A DNA stretch of 52,979 nucleotides from Escherichia phage LF82-11, in sequence record PV660454. One strand, written 5' to 3'. The first letter of the stretch is position 1. The number at the start of each line of letters is the position of its first letter. Shown in pieces: positions 2,190 to 52,979 of the stretch. Below the pieces are notes generated by a model that was not told where the DNA came from, did not search any database, and worked only from the letters and a program-made list of their open reading frames with translations. The translations under genes and the position numbers were made by a program.

Positions 2190-3506
2190 ATGACTAAGCA
2201 GAAAAAGCCCGTCAAAATGGACTCGTACAACGAGACATTCAAGGGCGCAGGTACAGACCGCGCGCACAGCGGCCTAAACTATTATTACAACGTCACGCAG
2301 TTCTACATTGACAACCCGCTAGCCCGTAAGATTATCGACGTTATACCGGAGGAAATGGTTTTTCCTGGGTTCGGTATCGACGGCGAAACGGATGAGAAGG
2401 AATTTAAATCCCGATGGGATGCGCTGAAGATGAACGAGCAGATTGTTGAAGCGTTTGCGTGGGAACGCCTTTACGGTGGCTCAGCAATCGTGGCTGTGAT
2501 CAATGACCGCCGCGCGCTCACTTCGCCAGCCAAAGAGGGTGCCCCGCTTGAGTCTATCCGAGTGTACGAAAAGGAGCAGGTCAAGATCCAGACGCGAGAA
2601 ACCAACCCGCGTAATGTTCGCTACGGTATGCCGAAGACGTACACCATCAACCCTGGTGGCTCTATGCCTGAGTACGAGATCCACTATTCGCGAATCTACA
2701 TCAACGATGGTGATCGCGTGCCCGGTTCGGTTCGCCGTCAAAATGAGGGGTGGGGTGCTTCCGTTCTTTCTCGCGGAATGATTGATGCCATCACGGACTA
2801 TGACTACTGCGAAGAGCTTGCAACTCAGCTTTTACGCCGTAAGCAGCAAGCGGTGTGGAAGGCTCGCGGCCTGGCTGATTTATGCGATGATGATGAAGGG
2901 CGCTACGCGGCACGAATCAGGCTTGCTCAGGTTGACGATAACAGCGGCGTTGGGCGTGCGGTTGGTATTGATGCCACGGATGAAGAGTACGAAATCTTGA
3001 ACTCCGATATCAACGGCGTTGACGCTTTTCTTGATAAGAAAATGGATCGCATCGTGAACTATTCCGGCATCCATGAAATCATCCTGAAGAATAAGAACGT
3101 GGGCGGCGTTTCAGCGAGCCAAAACACGGCGCTTGAGACATTCTACAAGATGATTGACCGCCGCCGTAACGAGCGATACAGGCCGCTTCTGGAGTGGTTG
3201 TTGCCGTTCATGATTCAAGAGCAAGAATGGTCTATCCGGTTCGACCCTCTCTCTATGCCGTCAGAGAAAGAACAGGCTGAGACATTCGAGCGTTACACCA
3301 ATGCGGTTGACAAGCTGATCACGAATCAGGCTATTGACACCGAAGAGGCGCGCGATACACTTGAATCTGTTTCTGATGTGCTCAAGCTGAAATCCGGCTT
3401 GCCGAAGTTGCCGCCGCGCGATAAGACTGGCAAAGATCAGCAGGGTAAAGAGAAAGTAACCACACTGCCAAAAGGGGCTACAGATGAAGGTTCAGGGGAT
3501 AGCTAA
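2190..3506 (+). CDS. portal protein
   Basis: 438 aa, gene order terminase-portal-head morphogenesis. Confidence 0.7.
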   Translation: MTKQKKPVKMDSYNETFKGAGTDRAHSGLNYYYNVTQFYIDNPLARKIIDVIPEEMVFPGFGIDGETDEKEFKSRWDALKMNEQIVEAFAWERLYGGSAIVAVINDRRALTSPAKEGAPLESIRVYEKEQVKIQTRETNPRNVRYGMPKTYTINPGGSMPEYEIHYSRIYINDGDRVPGSVRRQNEGWGASVLSRGMIDAITDYDYCEELATQLLRRKQQAVWKARGLADLCDDDEGRYAARIRLAQVDDNSGVGRAVGIDATDEEYEILNSDINGVDAFLDKKMDRIVNYSGIHEIILKNKNVGGVSASQNTALETFYKMIDRRRNERYRPLLEWLLPFMIQEQEWSIRFDPLSMPSEKEQAETFERYTNAVDKLITNQAIDTEEARDTLESVSDVLKLKSGLPKLPPRDKTGKDQQGKEKVTTLPKGATDEGSGDS

Positions 3507-4248
3507 ACAGTGGCGCTATCCAGAAGCAAGCGAGCGGGAATTATCCCGCTCTCTGGCAACGTTCGCGGGTGAGCTTATCGTGTTTGCTCGCGATCAACTG
3601 GATAAGATGAAGTTTGACGCTAGCGCCGATGAGATAGATCAGGCAGAAAGCGAGCTTGAAGATTACGCCGCGTATCTGATCGCAGGTCTGATGGCCTTGC
3701 TTCCATCGCTGGCGCTGAAGATTTACCGCTTCAACTCGCAGCAGTTTATTGATGTTGCCAAATCTGCTGGCGGGAAAAAGAATCCGGTTGTGGTTCTGCT
3801 TATCGCTCTGGGATATAACGCTAACGAGCCGTGGTATCGTGAGAAAGAAGATAACTGGCTATCTCTCACAGAGGCAAGTTATCGTAAGCTGGCGAATGAT
3901 ATCATTGCTGACTGGTCTAACACCGTAAGGATGGAAAACGCCAAAGGCAAGAGCCGTGAGTATATCGACGATGTGATTGAGCAGCGTTACAAGGTGTATA
4001 CTGGCTGGACGGTAAACAGATCTCGTGGAATCGTTGCGACTTGGAATAGTTTACTGATGCGCGCGCGCCTGGAAGATTCAGGAGTGACGCATTATTTTTG
4101 GCATGGTAAACTTGACGAACGCGAGCGCCTTAAGCACTTGTTATGGGAGAACAAACGAATCGCCATAAACAGCGATCACGTATTCCCAGGTGAAGAATAC
4201 GGTTGCCGATGCTGGGCAACTCCTGACTTTTACAATATCGAGGAATGA
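3484..4248 (+). CDS. head morphogenesis / minor head protein
   Basis: 254 aa directly after portal; Mu F / SPP1 gp7-like position. Confidence 0.45.
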   Translation: MKVQGIAKQWRYPEASERELSRSLATFAGELIVFARDQLDKMKFDASADEIDQAESELEDYAAYLIAGLMALLPSLALKIYRFNSQQFIDVAKSAGGKKNPVVVLLIALGYNANEPWYREKEDNWLSLTEASYRKLANDIIADWSNTVRMENAKGKSREYIDDVIEQRYKVYTGWTVNRSRGIVATWNSLLMRARLEDSGVTHYFWHGKLDERERLKHLLWENKRIAINSDHVFPGEEYGCRCWATPDFYNIEE

Positions 4249-5375
4249 AAATGACCACTAAACAACGCTATGATAGCGCACCAATCAAGGCACGATTCGA
4301 TTCAAACGGATATCTTCATGATGAGCCAATCATCGCGCGAATCGGCATTCAATCGTACATGAAACCAGATGGAACCATGCAGCGTGAATTTCGCCCGGCT
4401 AGCGAGGTATTCAGCGAGAAGTCAATGAAGTCTTTTCAAGGGATGCCGATTGTTGAAGGTCACAAGGAGATCACCGTTAAGAACGCGCGAGGTGAGGTTG
4501 TTGGCGCGGTGAGCGGAGCGGCGCGCCGTGACGGAATCGGCTTGCTGTGCCCGATCGTAATTCACGATGGTGAATCAATCGAAAGCGCCAAACGAGGCGA
4601 TGCTGCTGAATTATCCGTAGGCTACAAAACAAACGATATTCATCGCGCCGGGTGGGGCAACGTGGTTACTGGTGAGTACGTATTCAAAGACGATGCGGAA
4701 ATGATGGAGAAGATTTTCCCCAGCGGAACCACGATGAGTGACGAATGGGAAGAGTTCGACGTGCTTCAAACAAACATCGTGCCCAACCACATCGCGAAGG
4801 TTCACAAAGGCCGCGCCGGAATCGCTCGTTTAAACCTTGACGGCTCCGAGGAAATCAAGTACGATTCAAGCGTTGACAATCAACCATCAAAGGAAAATGT
4901 TATGACCGTTAAAATTAAGATCGACTCCGCAGAAGTGGAAGTAACACAGGATGTGGCAAACCACATCGAAGCGCTGAAGGCAACCGCAACGGCAGCCAAA
5001 ACAAAGGCTGATACTCTGGAAGCAGAGCGCGACTCACTGAAAGTTAAGGTTGACGGCCTCCCGGCACTGATTGAAGCCGCGATCGCCGAAGCGAAAACAA
5101 AAGCCGATGCAGAAAACGAAATCAAAACTTTCGCCACTGAAATTGGCGTTAAGTGTGACGGCCTGGATAACAAAGCGATTAAAGTTGCAGTTATCAAAGA
5201 GGTGTTAGGTATCGACGCAGCAGAGAAAAGCGATGCTTATATTGATCAGTCATTTGAAATCGCGCGCGATTCTGATAAGATGGCGGCTAATCGCGTTAAA
5301 ATCTCCGGCTCTAACGGCAAGGAAGACGGCGCTGATACTGGCATCCCTGATGCTCAGGCTCGTTTCCGCAAGTAA
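4245..5375 (+). CDS. scaffolding protein / prohead protease-like
   Basis: 376 aa; C-terminal Ala/Lys/Glu-rich predicted coiled coil; precedes capsid genes; alternative ATG at 4251 has better RBS. Confidence 0.4.
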   Translation: MKMTTKQRYDSAPIKARFDSNGYLHDEPIIARIGIQSYMKPDGTMQREFRPASEVFSEKSMKSFQGMPIVEGHKEITVKNARGEVVGAVSGAARRDGIGLLCPIVIHDGESIESAKRGDAAELSVGYKTNDIHRAGWGNVVTGEYVFKDDAEMMEKIFPSGTTMSDEWEEFDVLQTNIVPNHIAKVHKGRAGIARLNLDGSEEIKYDSSVDNQPSKENVMTVKIKIDSAEVEVTQDVANHIEALKATATAAKTKADTLEAERDSLKVKVDGLPALIEAAIAEAKTKADAENEIKTFATEIGVKCDGLDNKAIKVAVIKEVLGIDAAEKSDAYIDQSFEIARDSDKMAANRVKISGSNGKEDGADTGIPDAQARFRK

Positions 5376-7460: not shown

Positions 7461-7868
7461 ATGAACGAAGATGAAATGAAGATCGCAGAGATTATGCGAA
7501 AGCTTGCGCCAGCGCTAAAGAACGTGCCAGATCAGACGATTGTTGTTTGGATTAACCTTGCGGAAATGTTCGTGTGTGCCAATAAGTTTGGCGACAAGTA
7601 TCACCAGGCCGTCGCACTCTATACGATGCACCTGATGTTCCTTGATGGCGCGATGAAGGGCGAGAAAGAAACTCTTGAGAGTTATTCACGTCGTGTAACG
7701 TCATTCACTCTGAGCGGTGAATTTTCCACGAGCTACGGGGCAGTGACCGCCAATAATACCGGGCGATCAATCCATGATACGCCATGGGGCAAAATGTACG
7801 ATATTCTCAACAAGAAAAAAGGCGGCGGGTTCGGCCTGATTTCAGGAATCAGAGGTTGTGGGCGATGA
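7461..7868 (+). CDS. head-tail connector / adaptor-like
   Basis: 135 aa, first of four translationally coupled neck genes. Confidence 0.35.
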   Translation: MNEDEMKIAEIMRKLAPALKNVPDQTIVVWINLAEMFVCANKFGDKYHQAVALYTMHLMFLDGAMKGEKETLESYSRRVTSFTLSGEFSTSYGAVTANNTGRSIHDTPWGKMYDILNKKKGGGFGLISGIRGCGR

Positions 7869-47786: not shown

Positions 47787-47954
47787 ATGTTCGAAGAAAA
47801 GAAACACAGGCCGGAACAAGCTTACTCAAGGGTATCACGCACCGTTAAAGAGCGTAGGCGCTGGGTTAAGTATTTCATGAATCAAGGCCACACCAGATCG
47901 GTTGCGATTGGCCTGGCTAAGTGGGCAACAAACAACTACAACGGGAAAAACTGA
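47787..47954 (+). CDS. small basic protein
   Basis: 55 aa, RBS AAGGGG; not in ORF track. Confidence 0.25.
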   Translation: MFEEKKHRPEQAYSRVSRTVKERRRWVKYFMNQGHTRSVAIGLAKWATNNYNGKN

Positions 47955-48586
47955 TGAACTTTCAAATGTACACTATGATCAAGCATCACTTACTTACTCA
48001 TCCAGATCAGCCAGTCTACATCTTCGACTATGACGGCACGCTTTCGGATGGCTCTCACCGACTGGACAAGTTGCCAACAAAAGATTTGCACCTCACCGAA
48101 AGCTGGGAAGAGTTCAATCGCCTTGCTTCATTCGATGAGCCGATCGAAACAACCATTCAGGTGATGAATTCACTTTATAAGGCTGGCGCTTTCGTTATCG
48201 TGTTAACCGGGCGCGCCGATAGCGTTGTTGAAGAGTCAACACAATGGCTGCATGATGCTGGGGCGAAATATACAGTGATGGTGATGCGTGGGCGTGACGA
48301 CAATCGCAAGGACACGATCATCAAGGAGGAATTCTTGCGCTACATCGGACTTGAGCGAATTACAGCGGCGTGGGATGATAGCCCAAAAGTGATCGAGCAT
48401 TTCCGATCGCTGGGCATCACAACCTACCAGGTTTGTGATTATGGCGATAAGACTCACGCGCATCTACAGTCACACGGCGTGAAAGATGCTGGCGGAGAGT
48501 GTGAGCATATTTGGGAGCGTCACAGTATTGGTGACGATTATTATGAATGCTGTGTTTCATGCGGCAGATCAAGAGGCATTAAGTAA
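47954..48586 (+). CDS. HAD-superfamily phosphatase with C-terminal Cys cluster
   Basis: IFDYDGTL (DxDGT) HAD motif I; ATGA-coupled; C-terminal C-x-n-C cluster. Confidence 0.5.
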   Translation: MNFQMYTMIKHHLLTHPDQPVYIFDYDGTLSDGSHRLDKLPTKDLHLTESWEEFNRLASFDEPIETTIQVMNSLYKAGAFVIVLTGRADSVVEESTQWLHDAGAKYTVMVMRGRDDNRKDTIIKEEFLRYIGLERITAAWDDSPKVIEHFRSLGITTYQVCDYGDKTHAHLQSHGVKDAGGECEHIWERHSIGDDYYECCVSCGRSRGIK

Positions 48587-49194
48587 TGGCAACTATCATC
48601 ATTCTGAATGCGCCGCCGCGCGCCGGGAAAGACACGATCGCGAAAATCATCGACGAGCAATACGGCTTGCCAGTTGTGAGCTTCAAAACTCCGATGTTCA
48701 ACATTGCTCGCGGCATCTTGGGCGAAGCGGATTTTAAAGAGTTCATGGCGGTTTACGAAACAGACCGCAAGGACACACAGCCGTTAAGTATTCTGCATGG
48801 CAGCACTTGCCGCGAGTTTATGATCTGGATTAGCGAATCCGTGATTAAGCCTCATTTCGGCAAGAAGCATTTCGGCTGGCTTATGGCTGATTTGCTCAGC
48901 GAAATGGAGGATGATGTTGATCTCACAATTTGCAGCGATGGCGGGTTCCCGGATGAGGTAGAGGCGTTGATTGACTTCGGGCACCGTGTCAAGCTGGTTC
49001 GTATGCACCGTGAAGGCTTCGACTTCTCGAAAGATAGCCGTGACTACATCTACCTTTCCGAAGAGTACAAGAGCAAGCCTGGTGTTGTTGAGTTCGATCT
49101 GACATTGCAGGACGGTTGCCCTAATCTGGCTGCTGAGACTATCGCGTCATTGTTCATTGCCCATCATAAACCAGATAACGAGATCCCTTGGTAA
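48586..49194 (+). CDS. P-loop (deoxy)nucleotide kinase-like protein
   Basis: N-terminal LNAPPRAGKDT Walker A resembling phage dNMP kinase P-loops. Confidence 0.45.
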   Translation: MATIIILNAPPRAGKDTIAKIIDEQYGLPVVSFKTPMFNIARGILGEADFKEFMAVYETDRKDTQPLSILHGSTCREFMIWISESVIKPHFGKKHFGWLMADLLSEMEDDVDLTICSDGGFPDEVEALIDFGHRVKLVRMHREGFDFSKDSRDYIYLSEEYKSKPGVVEFDLTLQDGCPNLAAETIASLFIAHHKPDNEIPW

Positions 49195-50989: not shown

Positions 50990-51029
50990 CACTTTTTGCT
51001 AAAACTCGAAATCGGGGTTGCGATATAGT
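50987..51029 (+). promoter_or_regulatory. box-promoter module
   Basis: TAGCACTTTTTGCTA, 22 bp, TATAGT in loop of GGGGTT/AACCCC hairpin. Confidence 0.5.
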
Positions 51030-51062
51030 AACCCCATCGAAACGCAACGGAGCAAACGAAAA

Positions 51063-51293
51063 ATGAAAAAGTACCCAACTGCGATGATTATCCGCACCAC
51101 TAACCGCGTAGAAGCCGATGCACTCACCCTGGCCGAATGTGGTTTCAAGGTTGGTGATATCATCGAGCTTGACGGATGCTACTGCGACGGCACAGCAAGT
51201 GCAAAAGCGATTCGCGAAGGGCTTGGGATTCGCGTAGGCGATAACGTCAGCCTTGAGGCTTGCGAATATGTTGTTGTGGAGGGTTCTATATGA
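51063..51293 (+). CDS. hypothetical protein (weak paralogue-family member)
   Basis: 76 aa from ATG 51063; CGFKVGDIIE. Confidence 0.3.
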   Translation: MKKYPTAMIIRTTNRVEADALTLAECGFKVGDIIELDGCYCDGTASAKAIREGLGIRVGDNVSLEACEYVVVEGSI

Positions 51294-51595
51294 TTTGGGT
51301 TCACACTTACGGCGTGGGCAAGTTCGGCAAGCGCATTATAAAAACCATCCACGAGAGCGCCGAAAGCGCTGAGGACTCACAAAAAGTCCTTGGTGGAACG
51401 GTTGAGCAGTTCATGAGCACAGAAGAGGTTGCGATCGAGAAATACCATATCGCCAACGCTGCGCGCCAGGAAGTTAGCGATATCATTGACGACTTCAGCA
51501 AGCACGATCCGGCATCCTACGGTTCGCCGGGATGGGATGCGAAAAAGCTGAAGGCGTGCAACATGATCAACCAGATTATCGAAGGGGATTTTTGA
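51290..51595 (+). CDS. hypothetical protein
   Basis: 101 aa, ATGA-coupled. Confidence 0.3.
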   Translation: MIWVHTYGVGKFGKRIIKTIHESAESAEDSQKVLGGTVEQFMSTEEVAIEKYHIANAARQEVSDIIDDFSKHDPASYGSPGWDAKKLKACNMINQIIEGDF

Positions 51596-51829
51596 ATGTT
51601 CGGACTGAGTGAGCCGCACTGGAACATAGTTAAGAGCCAGGCGCGAAAGCTGAATGAAGCGGTTAAAGCAATGCCGGAGAAAGATCGCAAAAATGACCGC
51701 CTGATGATTCAGGTTATCGACAAGCATCACCAGCCGATCGCCACCATCATTGAGCGCTTGAAATTCACTTGGACGGCTGGATATTTAGCCGGGCGCGTGG
51801 GAAATAAAACTAACGGAGATTATGAGTAA
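51596..51829 (+). CDS. hypothetical protein
   Basis: 77 aa, overlapping start. Confidence 0.3.
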   Translation: MFGLSEPHWNIVKSQARKLNEAVKAMPEKDRKNDRLMIQVIDKHHQPIATIIERLKFTWTAGYLAGRVGNKTNGDYE

Positions 51830-52011
51830 TGGCAGGATTTGACAGCACGAAAAAAGACGCTACGCAAGAAGAGTGGAAGGAACAGCTTGATTGCATCGTC
51901 GAACTAAACGGCTACAACCCTGATTTCATCCCTGATTCATGGCTTGATGCATATGATGGCGGCGCTGAAGTGGCTGATTTCTTTTACGATAACTATGACT
52001 CGGAGGAATAA
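51829..52011 (+). CDS. strongly acidic small protein
   Basis: 60 aa, about one third Asp/Glu with aromatic residues. Confidence 0.3.
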   Translation: MAGFDSTKKDATQEEWKEQLDCIVELNGYNPDFIPDSWLDAYDGGAEVADFFYDNYDSEE

Positions 52012-52217
52012 TGTTTAAGCATCTGCCAAAGAAAGGCGAAATCATTCGCTGTGATTCAGTAGTTGGAGCCGCGCCGTTTATGGTTGGCGTTGAGTACACC
52101 GTTGAACATGTTGATCGCAAAGTTGGTCACATCTACGTTTACGGTGACGAAGGCAACCTCGAGGCGATCGACTACCCGCAAGACGCTGTACACGGAAAGT
52201 TTTCAAAAGTTGATTGA
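52011..52217 (+). CDS. hypothetical protein (weak paralogue-family member)
   Basis: 68 aa; IIRCDS...FMVGVEYTV. Confidence 0.3.
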   Translation: MFKHLPKKGEIIRCDSVVGAAPFMVGVEYTVEHVDRKVGHIYVYGDEGNLEAIDYPQDAVHGKFSKVD

Positions 52218-52381
52218 CGACACCTTCGCTGAGTGGTAAATTAAAAAGCGTAGACAGAAGAGGCGCTTAGAGCGCAACGGGCATCACGTTTGATGCAACT
52301 TAGTTTACAGCGTCATTGATGGCGCTTTCATTCGGTGCATAGTGGTAAGCACGCCGTAGACCCGTAAGCGGCACAAATTCA

Positions 52382-52469
52382 GGAAGGTTGGCAGAGTGGA
52401 CGATCGCGCACGGTTGCTAACCGTCAAGCCGGAAACGGCTCAAGGGTTCGAATCCCTTACCTTCCACCA
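52382..52469 (+). tRNA. tRNA-Ser (anticodon GCU), type II with long variable arm
   Basis: 7-bp acceptor stem GGAAGGT/ACCTTCC, TTGCTAA anticodon loop, GCCG-gaaa-CGGC variable arm, AAGGG-TTCGAAT-CCCTT T-arm, 3' ACCA; D-stem and anticodon stem each carry a mismatch. Confidence 0.6.
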
Positions 52470-52484
52470 ATCAAAGAGGTTTGC

Positions 52485-52664
52485 ATGTTTGATGTTAAAC
52501 TCACTATCTTGTTAATGGGGCGCTCATGCGCATCATGCAAGCAACACTTCGAGTGCACCGTTGAGGCGGAAACATCCGAAGATGCCGTGTCAAAGGCAAA
52601 GGCAATGGCGGGAGCCGATCCCACTACTCACAAGTTTTTAGTTAACTACGTAAGGAAAAAGTAA
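52485..52664 (+). CDS. small hypothetical protein
   Basis: 59 aa, RBS AGAGG; not in ORF track. Confidence 0.25.
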   Translation: MFDVKLTILLMGRSCASCKQHFECTVEAETSEDAVSKAKAMAGADPTTHKFLVNYVRKK

Positions 52665-52665
52665 A

Positions 52666-52899
52666 ATGCTGAATTCAATTTTGTTTATCGTCCTGGGTGT
52701 GATTATTGGCGTTATCGTCGTTGTTGCGTGGGCTGGCCTGTGGTCGCGAAAGCTACTGGCAAAGAACCAATTCGCCTCAGCGCGCTTCGATACGAAATCA
52801 AAAGAATGGCGCATTTGCGGCAAGTACGCAAAGATCGCACAGGAGTTGGTAGACATTCGCGAAGGACGAAAGCCTGGCGCGATTAAGTACATCGACTGA
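52666..52899 (+). CDS. N-terminally membrane-anchored small protein
   Basis: 77 aa, N-terminal hydrophobic helix ILFIVLGVIIGVIVVVAWAGLW. Confidence 0.3.
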   Translation: MLNSILFIVLGVIIGVIVVVAWAGLWSRKLLAKNQFASARFDTKSKEWRICGKYAKIAQELVDIREGRKPGAIKYID

Positions 52900-52904
52900 T
52901 AAAC

Positions 52905-52928
52905 AACCCGCTTCGGCGGGTTTTTTTG
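52905..52928 (+). terminator. rho-independent terminator
   Basis: CCCGC-ttcg-GCGGG then T7. Confidence 0.55.
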
Positions 52929-52936
52929 CGTCTGCA

Positions 52937-52979
52937 ATCTGGTATAATCGAACCTCATCAACAAAGGAGGGAAGGAACA
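52937..52979 (+). promoter_or_regulatory. extended -10 promoter and RBS for a gene beyond the window end
   Basis: cTGgTATAAT then AAGGAGGG near the window end. Confidence 0.4.

Follow-up and report, generated by a model that had tools for sequence, protein, structure and literature searches.

A phage tRNA-Ser(GCU) gene and its predicted structured leader RNA in Escherichia phage LF82-11

The 52,979-nt sequence of Escherichia phage LF82-11 (PV660454), analysed at its full length and referred to below as the window, contains a single tRNA gene called by ARAGORN, a tRNA-Ser with anticodon GCT located on the + strand at positions 52382–52469. The Rfam tRNA family RF00005 matches positions 52382–52466 over the full model (positions 1–71) with a score of 44.9 bits, the gathering score being 29, and an E-value of 2.1e-6, computed for the whole window, both strands and all Rfam families. 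Both tools confirm the tRNA-Ser(GCU) gene reported in the initial annotation. The gene is 88 nt long and encodes a class II tRNA with the anticodon at 52416–52418 and the discriminator base A73. All elements previously read from the sequence are present: a perfect 7-bp acceptor stem (GGAAGGU/ACCUUCC), a canonical T-arm (AAGGG-UUCGAAU-CCCUU), a long variable arm, 16 nt in length, whose 5-bp stem carries a GAAA loop, and an encoded CCA end. The 7-bp acceptor, the GG of the D-loop, the UUCGAAU T loop and a score above the covariance model threshold correspond to a bacterial-type class II tRNA-Ser. The anticodon loop UUGCUAA (52414–52420) carries U33 and A37, and the GCU anticodon reads AGC and AGU.

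Two small genes had been described 3' of the tRNA, and both are found there, followed by a terminator. The Shine-Dalgarno sequence AAAGAGG of the first gene (52473–52479, + strand) is located 4 nt past the 3' end of the tRNA; the equivalent Shine-Dalgarno sequence comes directly after the leader in T1, Ec_L1, and Stevie. This gene (52485–52664, + strand), the conserved gene served by the leader described below, encodes a 59-aa CxxC protein, a homologue of T1 ST56 (39% identity) assigned to phrog_2919, a PHROG match of unknown function. In a tblastn search the ST56-like protein matched 792 phage records, the majority of them from Klebsiella phages and from coliphages of Drexlerviridae type. The last gene of the unit (52666–52899, + strand) encodes a 77-aa predicted membrane protein (DUF7299, phrog_5976). 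The terminator scan detected, at 52905–52929 (+ strand), a hairpin resembling an intrinsic terminator, AACCCGCTTCGGCGGGTT, with a T run behind it; in T1 a terminator is annotated at the corresponding site. This hairpin is likely the 3' end of a leader-tRNA-mRNA transcript. The location of the tRNA had been given as the end of the early region; as the record is circular and terS lies at position 1, this boundary is retained here as the one just upstream of the packaging genes.

Positions 51000–52979 of the window are 100% identical, over the full length, to the sequences of Escherichia phages LF82-10, -12, -19, and -40 (megablast). The tRNA-Ser is already annotated at 52382–52469 in the circular GenBank record PV660455 of LF82-12, a T1-like siphovirus close to the genus Vilniusvirus, which was recovered from compost soil (Ames, Iowa) with E. 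coli LF82 as the isolation host. According to the genome announcement, each 53-kb LF82 phage has one tRNA gene, and these phages form a new genus-level cluster; in ICTV they are matched best by NBD2 (KX130668), the Vilniusvirus type within Drexlerviridae (PMC12509680). The tRNA of phage KLB19 is annotated in GenBank and mentioned in the literature (PMC11845039). The tRNA is, therefore, already known, being annotated for LF82-12 and its relatives and published for LF82-12, NBD2, and KLB19. In the Vilniusvirus phages vB_EcoS_NBD2 (KX130668), KLB19 (PP526029), and HazelMika (OL539457), from which the LF82 phages are set apart as a separate genus-level cluster, the same gene occupies the same locus. 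It is 92% identical to the LF82 gene, differing by seven substitutions, and has the same anticodon, the same A73, the same leader upstream and the same ST56-like gene downstream. The ST56-like CDS is annotated as starting inside the tRNA in KLB19 (MVRG_087, positions 3395–3643 of locus L003) and HazelMika (gp86, positions 433–690 of locus L127); these start codons were probably called too far upstream. The earlier remark that small siphoviruses rarely carry tRNAs is overstated, since at least three other Drexlerviridae lineages have a tRNA at the same site and many siphoviruses of 45–60 kb carry a related tRNA-Ser(GCU).

Sequence and alignment reveal several elements used by SerRS in the phage tRNA: G1-C72, G2-C71, C11-G24, and the 5-bp variable stem. 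The C11-G24 pair was reportedly described as a SerRS determinant by Normanly in 1992. The long variable arm is the main SerRS identity element, and G1-C72 and G2-C71 are conserved across bacterial tRNA-Ser (PMC9976931). The discriminator, however, is A73 in the LF82 tRNA and not G73 as in E. coli serV, a difference missed in the initial annotation; A73 is also present in NBD2, KLB19, and HazelMika. In E. coli, G73 is a moderate SerRS determinant in vivo, dispensable in vitro, and it serves as an antideterminant against LeuRS and TyrRS (PMC9976931). Since the contribution of G73 is moderate and dispensable in vitro, its replacement by A73 lowers confidence in efficient or exclusive serylation, not in the identity of the gene. 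Position 73 varies between A, U, and G among the phage tRNA-Ser homologues, with G73 found only in Sf11 and Bas81 of those aligned, which suggests that this position seems to be unconstrained in this phage tRNA lineage.

Two stem mismatches had likewise escaped notice. The A12·C23 mismatch in the D stem is shared with homologues from Aeromonas, Vibrio, and Salmonella phages, and its presence in such distant phages indicates that it is tolerated. The C27·C43 mismatch at the top of the anticodon stem is limited to the LF82 phages. NBD2 pairs normally at both sites, with A-U at 12/23 and C-G at 27/43. Because of the two mismatches the LF82 copy has the lowest tRNA covariance model score, 44.9 bits, compared with 50.6 for NBD2, 56.8 for serV, and 57.2 for Sf11.

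Nucleotide identity between LF82-12 and NBD2 is 81% in the upstream ORF (58% at third codon positions), 92% in the tRNA, 70% in the ST56-like ORF, and 58% in the last ORF; for flanking ORFs in general, values of 58–84% were obtained. The tRNA carries 7 changes in 88 nt, including one compensatory change (U7-A66 to A7-U66), and none of them falls in the anticodon loop, T arm or variable arm. Such an excess of identity in the tRNA over third codon positions, together with the compensatory change, is the pattern expected under purifying selection and supports the view that this is a genuine phage-encoded type II tRNA-Ser(GCU) that has been maintained.

Compared with host serV the LF82 tRNA has 54% identity, and with the tRNA-Ser(GCU) of other, unrelated phages of Aeromonas, Vibrio, Shigella, and Escherichia (Sf11 and Bas81 among them) it has 76–78%, which on sequence grounds places it in a tRNA-Ser(GCU) lineage circulating among phages rather than as a recent host copy. 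It shares with serV the anticodon and predicted decoding, G1-C72, G2-C71, C11-G24, and an identical T loop; serV differs by G73, a longer variable arm, C32 in place of U32, and by its other stems and D loop. The phage tRNA-Ser(GCU) of Sf11 and Bas81 (Cedarrivervirus, in a Ser-Arg pair), Ahp1 (Aeromonas), R29Z (Vibrio), and T5 have the same class II fold, GAAA-capped short variable arm and UUGCUAA anticodon loop, with 76–78% identity. Unlike the LF82 gene, they are located in tRNA clusters or pairs in unrelated contexts, without the Drexlerviridae leader upstream, and their discriminator is U or G. With the tRNA as query, blastn retrieved nothing from 5,426 E. coli genomes, an outcome that reflects database size and divergence, and the serV sequence was then obtained directly for comparison. 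When IMG/VR was scanned with leader or tRNA patterns, the sole matches were NBD2 and an unrelated host-like tRNA-Ser carrying G73.

The upstream ORF and the tRNA are separated by 164 non-coding bases. The promoter scan predicted a sigma-70-type promoter at 52214–52242 (+ strand), consisting of TTGACG, a 17-nt spacer and the extended -10 TGG-TAAATT; this element, TTGACG-17-TGGTAAATT, overlaps the end of the upstream ORF. The layout TTGAC-N17/18-TGnTAnnAT is kept in most genera examined, the -35 of Braunvirinae being TTGCAT, and the predicted promoter is presumably active. The predicted 5' part of the transcript is a structured leader RNA of about 134 nt (52248–52381, + strand). It starts with the 5' box GCGUAGAC (52248–52255), which reads (C/G)CGUAGAC across relatives, and continues with the hairpins HP1 (52263–52275), HP2 (52281–52296), HP3 (52309–52326, present in Vilniusvirus only), HP4 (52335–52352), and HP5 (52353–52372), all on the + strand. 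The loop of HP5, AGACCCGUAA, ends in CGUAA. The tail ACAAAUUCA (52373–52381, + strand) ends in AUUCA, and the tRNA begins one base after the leader end.

The 3' half of the leader is 96% identical to that of NBD2, above both the tRNA (92%) and third codon positions (58%). It was found by blastn at 89–92% identity in T1, Shfl1, SH6, Sfin phages, and others, in about 75–79 records, none of which is annotated in the leader region and none of which has a tRNA-Ser. A hand-registered alignment comprising 13 sequences from Tunavirinae and Vilniusvirus has 96.9% of its cells paired and seven pairs changed on both sides, compared with 0–1 double-changed pairs in a control where the partner was slid by 1–3 columns. 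In ten phages of nine genera, two of them Vilniusvirus-like, 97.7% of the cells pair and 13 of the 15 pairs are double-changed, values attained in none of 500 shuffles. Both alignments were registered to the structure, which favours the structure. An independent check was provided by a covariance model (R1) built from an automatic alignment of Tunavirinae and Vilniusvirus only. This model lacks the HP4 helix, and HP4 is unrecognisable by eye in several distant genera. It gives exactly one match in the window (52248–52381) and one in the T1 genome (7622–7741). Single, correctly placed matches were also obtained in Stevie (Tlsvirus, E 8e-11), Ec_L1 (Eclunavirus, E 2e-9), BEK1-23 (Hanrivervirus, E 2e-5), Opt-79 (Rogunavirinae, E 2e-4), 2005III (Veterinaerplatzvirus, E 1.5e-3), Alina (Webervirus, E 0.02), and IME253 (Rtpvirus, E 0.5). 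Judging by these comparisons, the leader is a conserved structured RNA of the Drexlerviridae genera examined that matches no Rfam family.

In the Rfam search of the whole window only the tRNA reaches the gathering score, and nothing is reported over 52248–52381 at E <= 10. No family reaches the gathering score in the T1 leader, and none appears at E <= 0.1 in the leaders of four other genera. No description of the leader was found in the literature searched. A scan of IMG/VR with the 5' box pattern returned mostly chance matches. Scans of bacterial genome contigs with leader patterns gave zero matches and then 120 chance matches in GC-rich bacteria, with no bacterial counterpart of the leader. 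A search for related loci with the upstream ORF retrieved NBD2 alone. The possibility that HP4 is a common tRNA D arm was rejected by a metagenome scan with its 14-mer, which produced 120 chance matches and neither tRNA nor leader among the 44 scanned. The interpretation of HP4-HP5 as a half-tRNA, with D-arm-like and anticodon-arm-like parts, is unsupported, as there is no T arm, no acceptor stem and no ARAGORN or Rfam call.

Several additional features of the leader were observed. The CGUAGAC motif occurs twice, once at the 5' end (52248–52255) and once within HP5, where it spans the 5' strand and the loop (52353–52361). In the RNAalifold prediction the 5' box pairs at long range with the HP5 3' strand, hinting at two alternative folds; by visual inspection, this pairing is not kept in Eclunavirus and Tlsvirus. 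In Hanrivervirus BEK1-23 (about positions 540–600 of locus L394), the last leader hairpin is GGCGAUA...UAUCGCC with CCGUAAG in the loop, followed by UUUUUAU. The arrangement resembles intrinsic termination, and the leader might therefore function in attenuation or terminate as a small RNA. In the T1-like sequence IMGVR_UViG_2974611450_000001 (about positions 4735–4855 of locus L231) HP2 is disrupted in its 5' strand and HP5 in its 3' strand, either as a natural variant in which loss of these helices is tolerated or through sequence error. The equivalent of the promoter and leader in T1 is located at 7580–7741 of NC_005833 and is unannotated.

The content of the slot between the leader and the ST56-like gene varies among genera. 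It holds the tRNA-Ser(GCU) in the LF82 phages and Vilniusvirus, tRNA-Arg(UCU) in Veterinaerplatzvirus and Rtpvirus, and tRNA-Arg(CCU) with an atypical tRNA-like gene in the Rogunavirinae phage Opt-79. In T1 and Tlsvirus it is occupied by a small ORF (ST57), and in Eclunavirus, Hanrivervirus, and Webervirus it contains nothing. The leader covariance model match stops 1–3 nt 5' of the tRNA in all four tRNA-bearing phages examined, which represent Vilniusvirus, Braunvirinae (two genera), and Rogunavirinae. The tRNA-Arg(UCU) of Braunvirinae and the tRNA-Arg(CCU) of Opt-79 thus share with the LF82 tRNA the junction after a homologous leader and before the Shine-Dalgarno sequence of the ST56-like gene, and they are likewise AGN readers; they differ in being other tRNAs for another amino acid, in Opt-79 with a second tRNA-like gene. 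The finding of different tRNAs right after one leader in several lineages indicates that the same junction received different tRNAs, all of them AGN-reading. The slot between the AUUCA tail and the ST56-like Shine-Dalgarno sequence is recurrent, and the position of the tRNA is probably not accidental.

The tRNA-Arg genes of the slot are located at 508–585 of locus L391 (MK907243), 501–578 of L396 (NC_047810), and, together with the second tRNA-like gene, 472–654 of L395 (OL539453). The tRNA-Arg of the slot is not closely related to the tRNA-Arg paired with tRNA-Ser in Sf11. The atypical tRNA-like gene of Klebsiella phage Opt-79 (L395, 553–654) is about 95–100 nt long and has a long extra arm; ARAGORN calls it "tRNA-???", its Rfam tRNA score is 42.7 bits, and the record has no feature there.

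The gene and fold of the tRNA, its conservation and its phage ancestry are established, as are the leader structure and the shared junction. Its transcription, processing, charging and selective benefit we infer as follows. Host RNA polymerase would start near 52248 from the conserved sigma-70 promoter (52214–52242), producing a precursor in which the structured leader is followed by the tRNA, the two small ORFs, and the terminator (52905–52929). RNase P would cut at the 5' end of the tRNA, freeing the leader, and 3' trimming would halt at the encoded CCA, so that the mRNA is left with a short leader. The tRNA would be charged by host SerRS via the long variable arm, G1-C72, G2-C71, and C11-G24. 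In E. coli K-12 the AGY decoder is encoded by the single serV gene. The likeliest benefit would be an extra, phage-controlled AGY decoder, making translation robust to host variation or depletion, with no correction of codon bias. A working AGC/AGU-reading phage tRNA, co-transcribed with the leader and the ORFs and adding to a phage-controlled supply of AGY decoder, is thus the reading we favour, with moderate confidence. It is consistent with the promoter and terminator found by the scans, which bracket the leader-tRNA-ORF unit, and with AGC as the serine codon that LF82-12 uses most. Against it stand an AGY usage that does not exceed that of tRNA-less T1 or the host, A73 in place of G73, the two stem mismatches with the lowest covariance model score among relatives, and the fact that most Drexlerviridae manage without a tRNA. 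Co-transcribed tRNA-mRNA units with RNase P-type processing are established in the E. coli tufB operon and in T4. The thrU-tufB operon and the T4 tRNA cluster with its species 1 and 2 RNAs also place a tRNA inside a longer transcript beside a structured RNA and ORFs; they have no sequence relationship to the LF82 unit, for which such processing is predicted.

Another role, put forward in the initial annotation, was compensation of a codon-usage mismatch, the tRNA supplementing codons that the phage, especially in its late genes, uses more than the host. Codons were counted in annotated CDSs, and the host values derive from a single 50-kb K-12 sample. The frequency of AGC and AGU per 1000 codons is 22.6 in all genes of LF82-12, 22.5 in its structural and packaging genes, and 22.7 in the others, compared with 22.4 in T1, which has no tRNA, 26.7 in 31 ordinary E. 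coli K-12 genes, and 12.4 in E. coli ribosomal-protein and elongation-factor genes. The cognate codons are, therefore, used no more often than in T1 or ordinary host genes, and late genes do not differ from the rest. The over-used serine codon in LF82-12 is UCA (26% of Ser), which tRNA-Ser(GCU) cannot read. AGC is the commonest serine codon in LF82-12 (28.8% of Ser vs. 20.9% in T1), and AGY accounts for 12 of 37 serine codons in the major capsid and tail proteins, compared with 7 of 39 in T1, as compensation would have it, but the latter gap consists of very small counts. For this tRNA, which KLB19 shares, the authors describing that phage likewise saw no correlation with codons (PMC11845039). 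Codon compensation is largely contradicted by these data and must be considered improbable; the useful outcome on the tRNA is a negative one, namely that codon bias does not account for it. The lack of a codon-bias rationale speaks for a further proposal of the initial annotation, a response to host tRNA-cleaving defences. Here the phage tRNA would replace host tRNA-Ser(GCU) destroyed by an immune nuclease or a tRNA-modifying toxin and would itself escape through sequence divergence, its stems, D loop, variable arm and discriminator being unlike those of the host. At 54% identity to serV, the anticodon loop differs only at position 32, while the stems, D loop and variable arm all differ, and G73 is often absent from phage tRNA-Ser homologues, only Sf11 and Bas81 having it. 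A suitable nuclease exists in E. coli: when a phage infects, the four tRNA-Ser species are all depleted by the HNH enzyme of the FORC82 type I-A retron (PMC12475279). However, the tRNA-Ser(GCU) of T5 was itself cleaved in that study, with no rescue (PMC12475279). A lone AGY reader also could not serve UCN, 63% of the LF82-12 serine codons, if all isoacceptors are cut. We know of no defence specific to tRNA-Ser(GCU). With defence-evading phage tRNAs such as the T5 tRNA-Tyr, acting against retron Ec78, and the T5 tRNA-Lys, acting against PARIS, a host effector cleaves the cognate host tRNA and the phage copy resists and restores growth; such a role for the LF82 tRNA-Ser appears rather unlikely.

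The location of the tRNA, 1 nt after the leader and 4 nt before the Shine-Dalgarno sequence, could also mean that it is kept mainly as a cis-acting RNase P signal that detaches the leader from the mRNA and sets the ends of both, decoding being incidental. The occurrence of unrelated tRNAs at the same junction in other lineages and the precedent of tRNA-mRNA co-processing in the tufB operon and T4 agree with this, but many genera join the leader straight to the Shine-Dalgarno sequence without a tRNA, so that no processing signal is required, and the retained anticodon loop and SerRS elements exceed the needs of an RNase P substrate; we regard this explanation as quite improbable. The two non-canonical stem pairs, with C27·C43 unique to the LF82 phages, the score 6 bits under that of NBD2, and the absence of a tRNA from most relatives would be compatible with a passenger gained by recombination, now useless and drifting in the LF82 lineage. 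That the gene is such a decaying or neutral remnant is very improbable given 7 changes in 88 nt against about 42% divergence at near-neutral sites, intact loops, a compensatory stem change, and the tolerance of A12·C23 in distant phage homologues. Finally, every Vilniusvirus-like copy has A73 and so lacks G73, the antideterminant of E. coli tRNA-Ser against LeuRS and TyrRS (PMC9976931); combined with the long variable arm, A73 could permit partial charging with leucine or tyrosine and low-level recoding of AGY. However, G2-C71 and C11-G24 are Ser-type, the Leu-type element being C2-G71 (PMC9976931), the G15/C48 core reads as Ser-type, and TyrRS needs its own anticodon. The occurrence of A, U or G at position 73 in phage homologues further suggests that SerRS imposes no constraint there, and misacylation is the most doubtful of the explanations considered.

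Beyond the favoured reading of the gene as a working AGY decoder, the tRNA may be one recognisable part of a larger RNA module, so far undescribed, that is conserved in most Drexlerviridae, including T1, and consists of a strong promoter, a structured leader of about 90–175 nt, the universally conserved small CxxC gene and a landing pad for AGN-reading tRNAs; this broader interpretation is tentative. The leader, with its 5' CGUAGAC box, covarying hairpins, CGUAA-ending loop, and AUUCA tail, may control the CxxC gene or be cut from it, and its 3' boundary may serve as the landing pad for repeated installation of AGN-reading tRNAs (Ser-GCU, Arg-UCU, and Arg-CCU). If the leader is a regulatory RNA or a stable small RNA and, in lineages with a tRNA, RNase P defines its 3' end, the leader and the tRNA would be functionally coupled, beyond mere adjacency. 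The tRNA alone adds little, being an annotated gene of a published genome and of a type common in phages. The new point is its setting, right after an undescribed conserved leader and at a recurrent tRNA slot, which provides a concrete model of expression from promoter through leader, tRNA, and mRNA to terminator. This conserved structured RNA is without annotation in any phage record examined, including that of T1, among the oldest model phages. Phages that are otherwise collinear differ in having a tRNA, a small ORF or nothing in the slot, and comparing them is a natural way to ask why small lytic phages retain single tRNAs; the tRNA-Ser-cleaving retron makes the idea of defence evasion directly testable with LF82-type phages.

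Two further observations concern the surroundings of the unit. The region 47954–49194 encodes two proteins, the first with a polynucleotide-kinase phosphatase domain of HAD type (PF25109) and the second P-loop kinase-like. The polynucleotide kinase/phosphatase gene (47954–48586) was considered as a tRNA-repair partner and rejected, since T1 has a homologue, ST64, without a tRNA; the kinase pair is not tied to the tRNA, and no RNA ligase is annotated in the window. Positions 52940–52948, located just past the terminator and ahead of terS (position 1), read TGGTATAAT, an extended -10 element that is perfect but has no good -35; it is a candidate for the promoter that serves the packaging genes beyond the circular junction.
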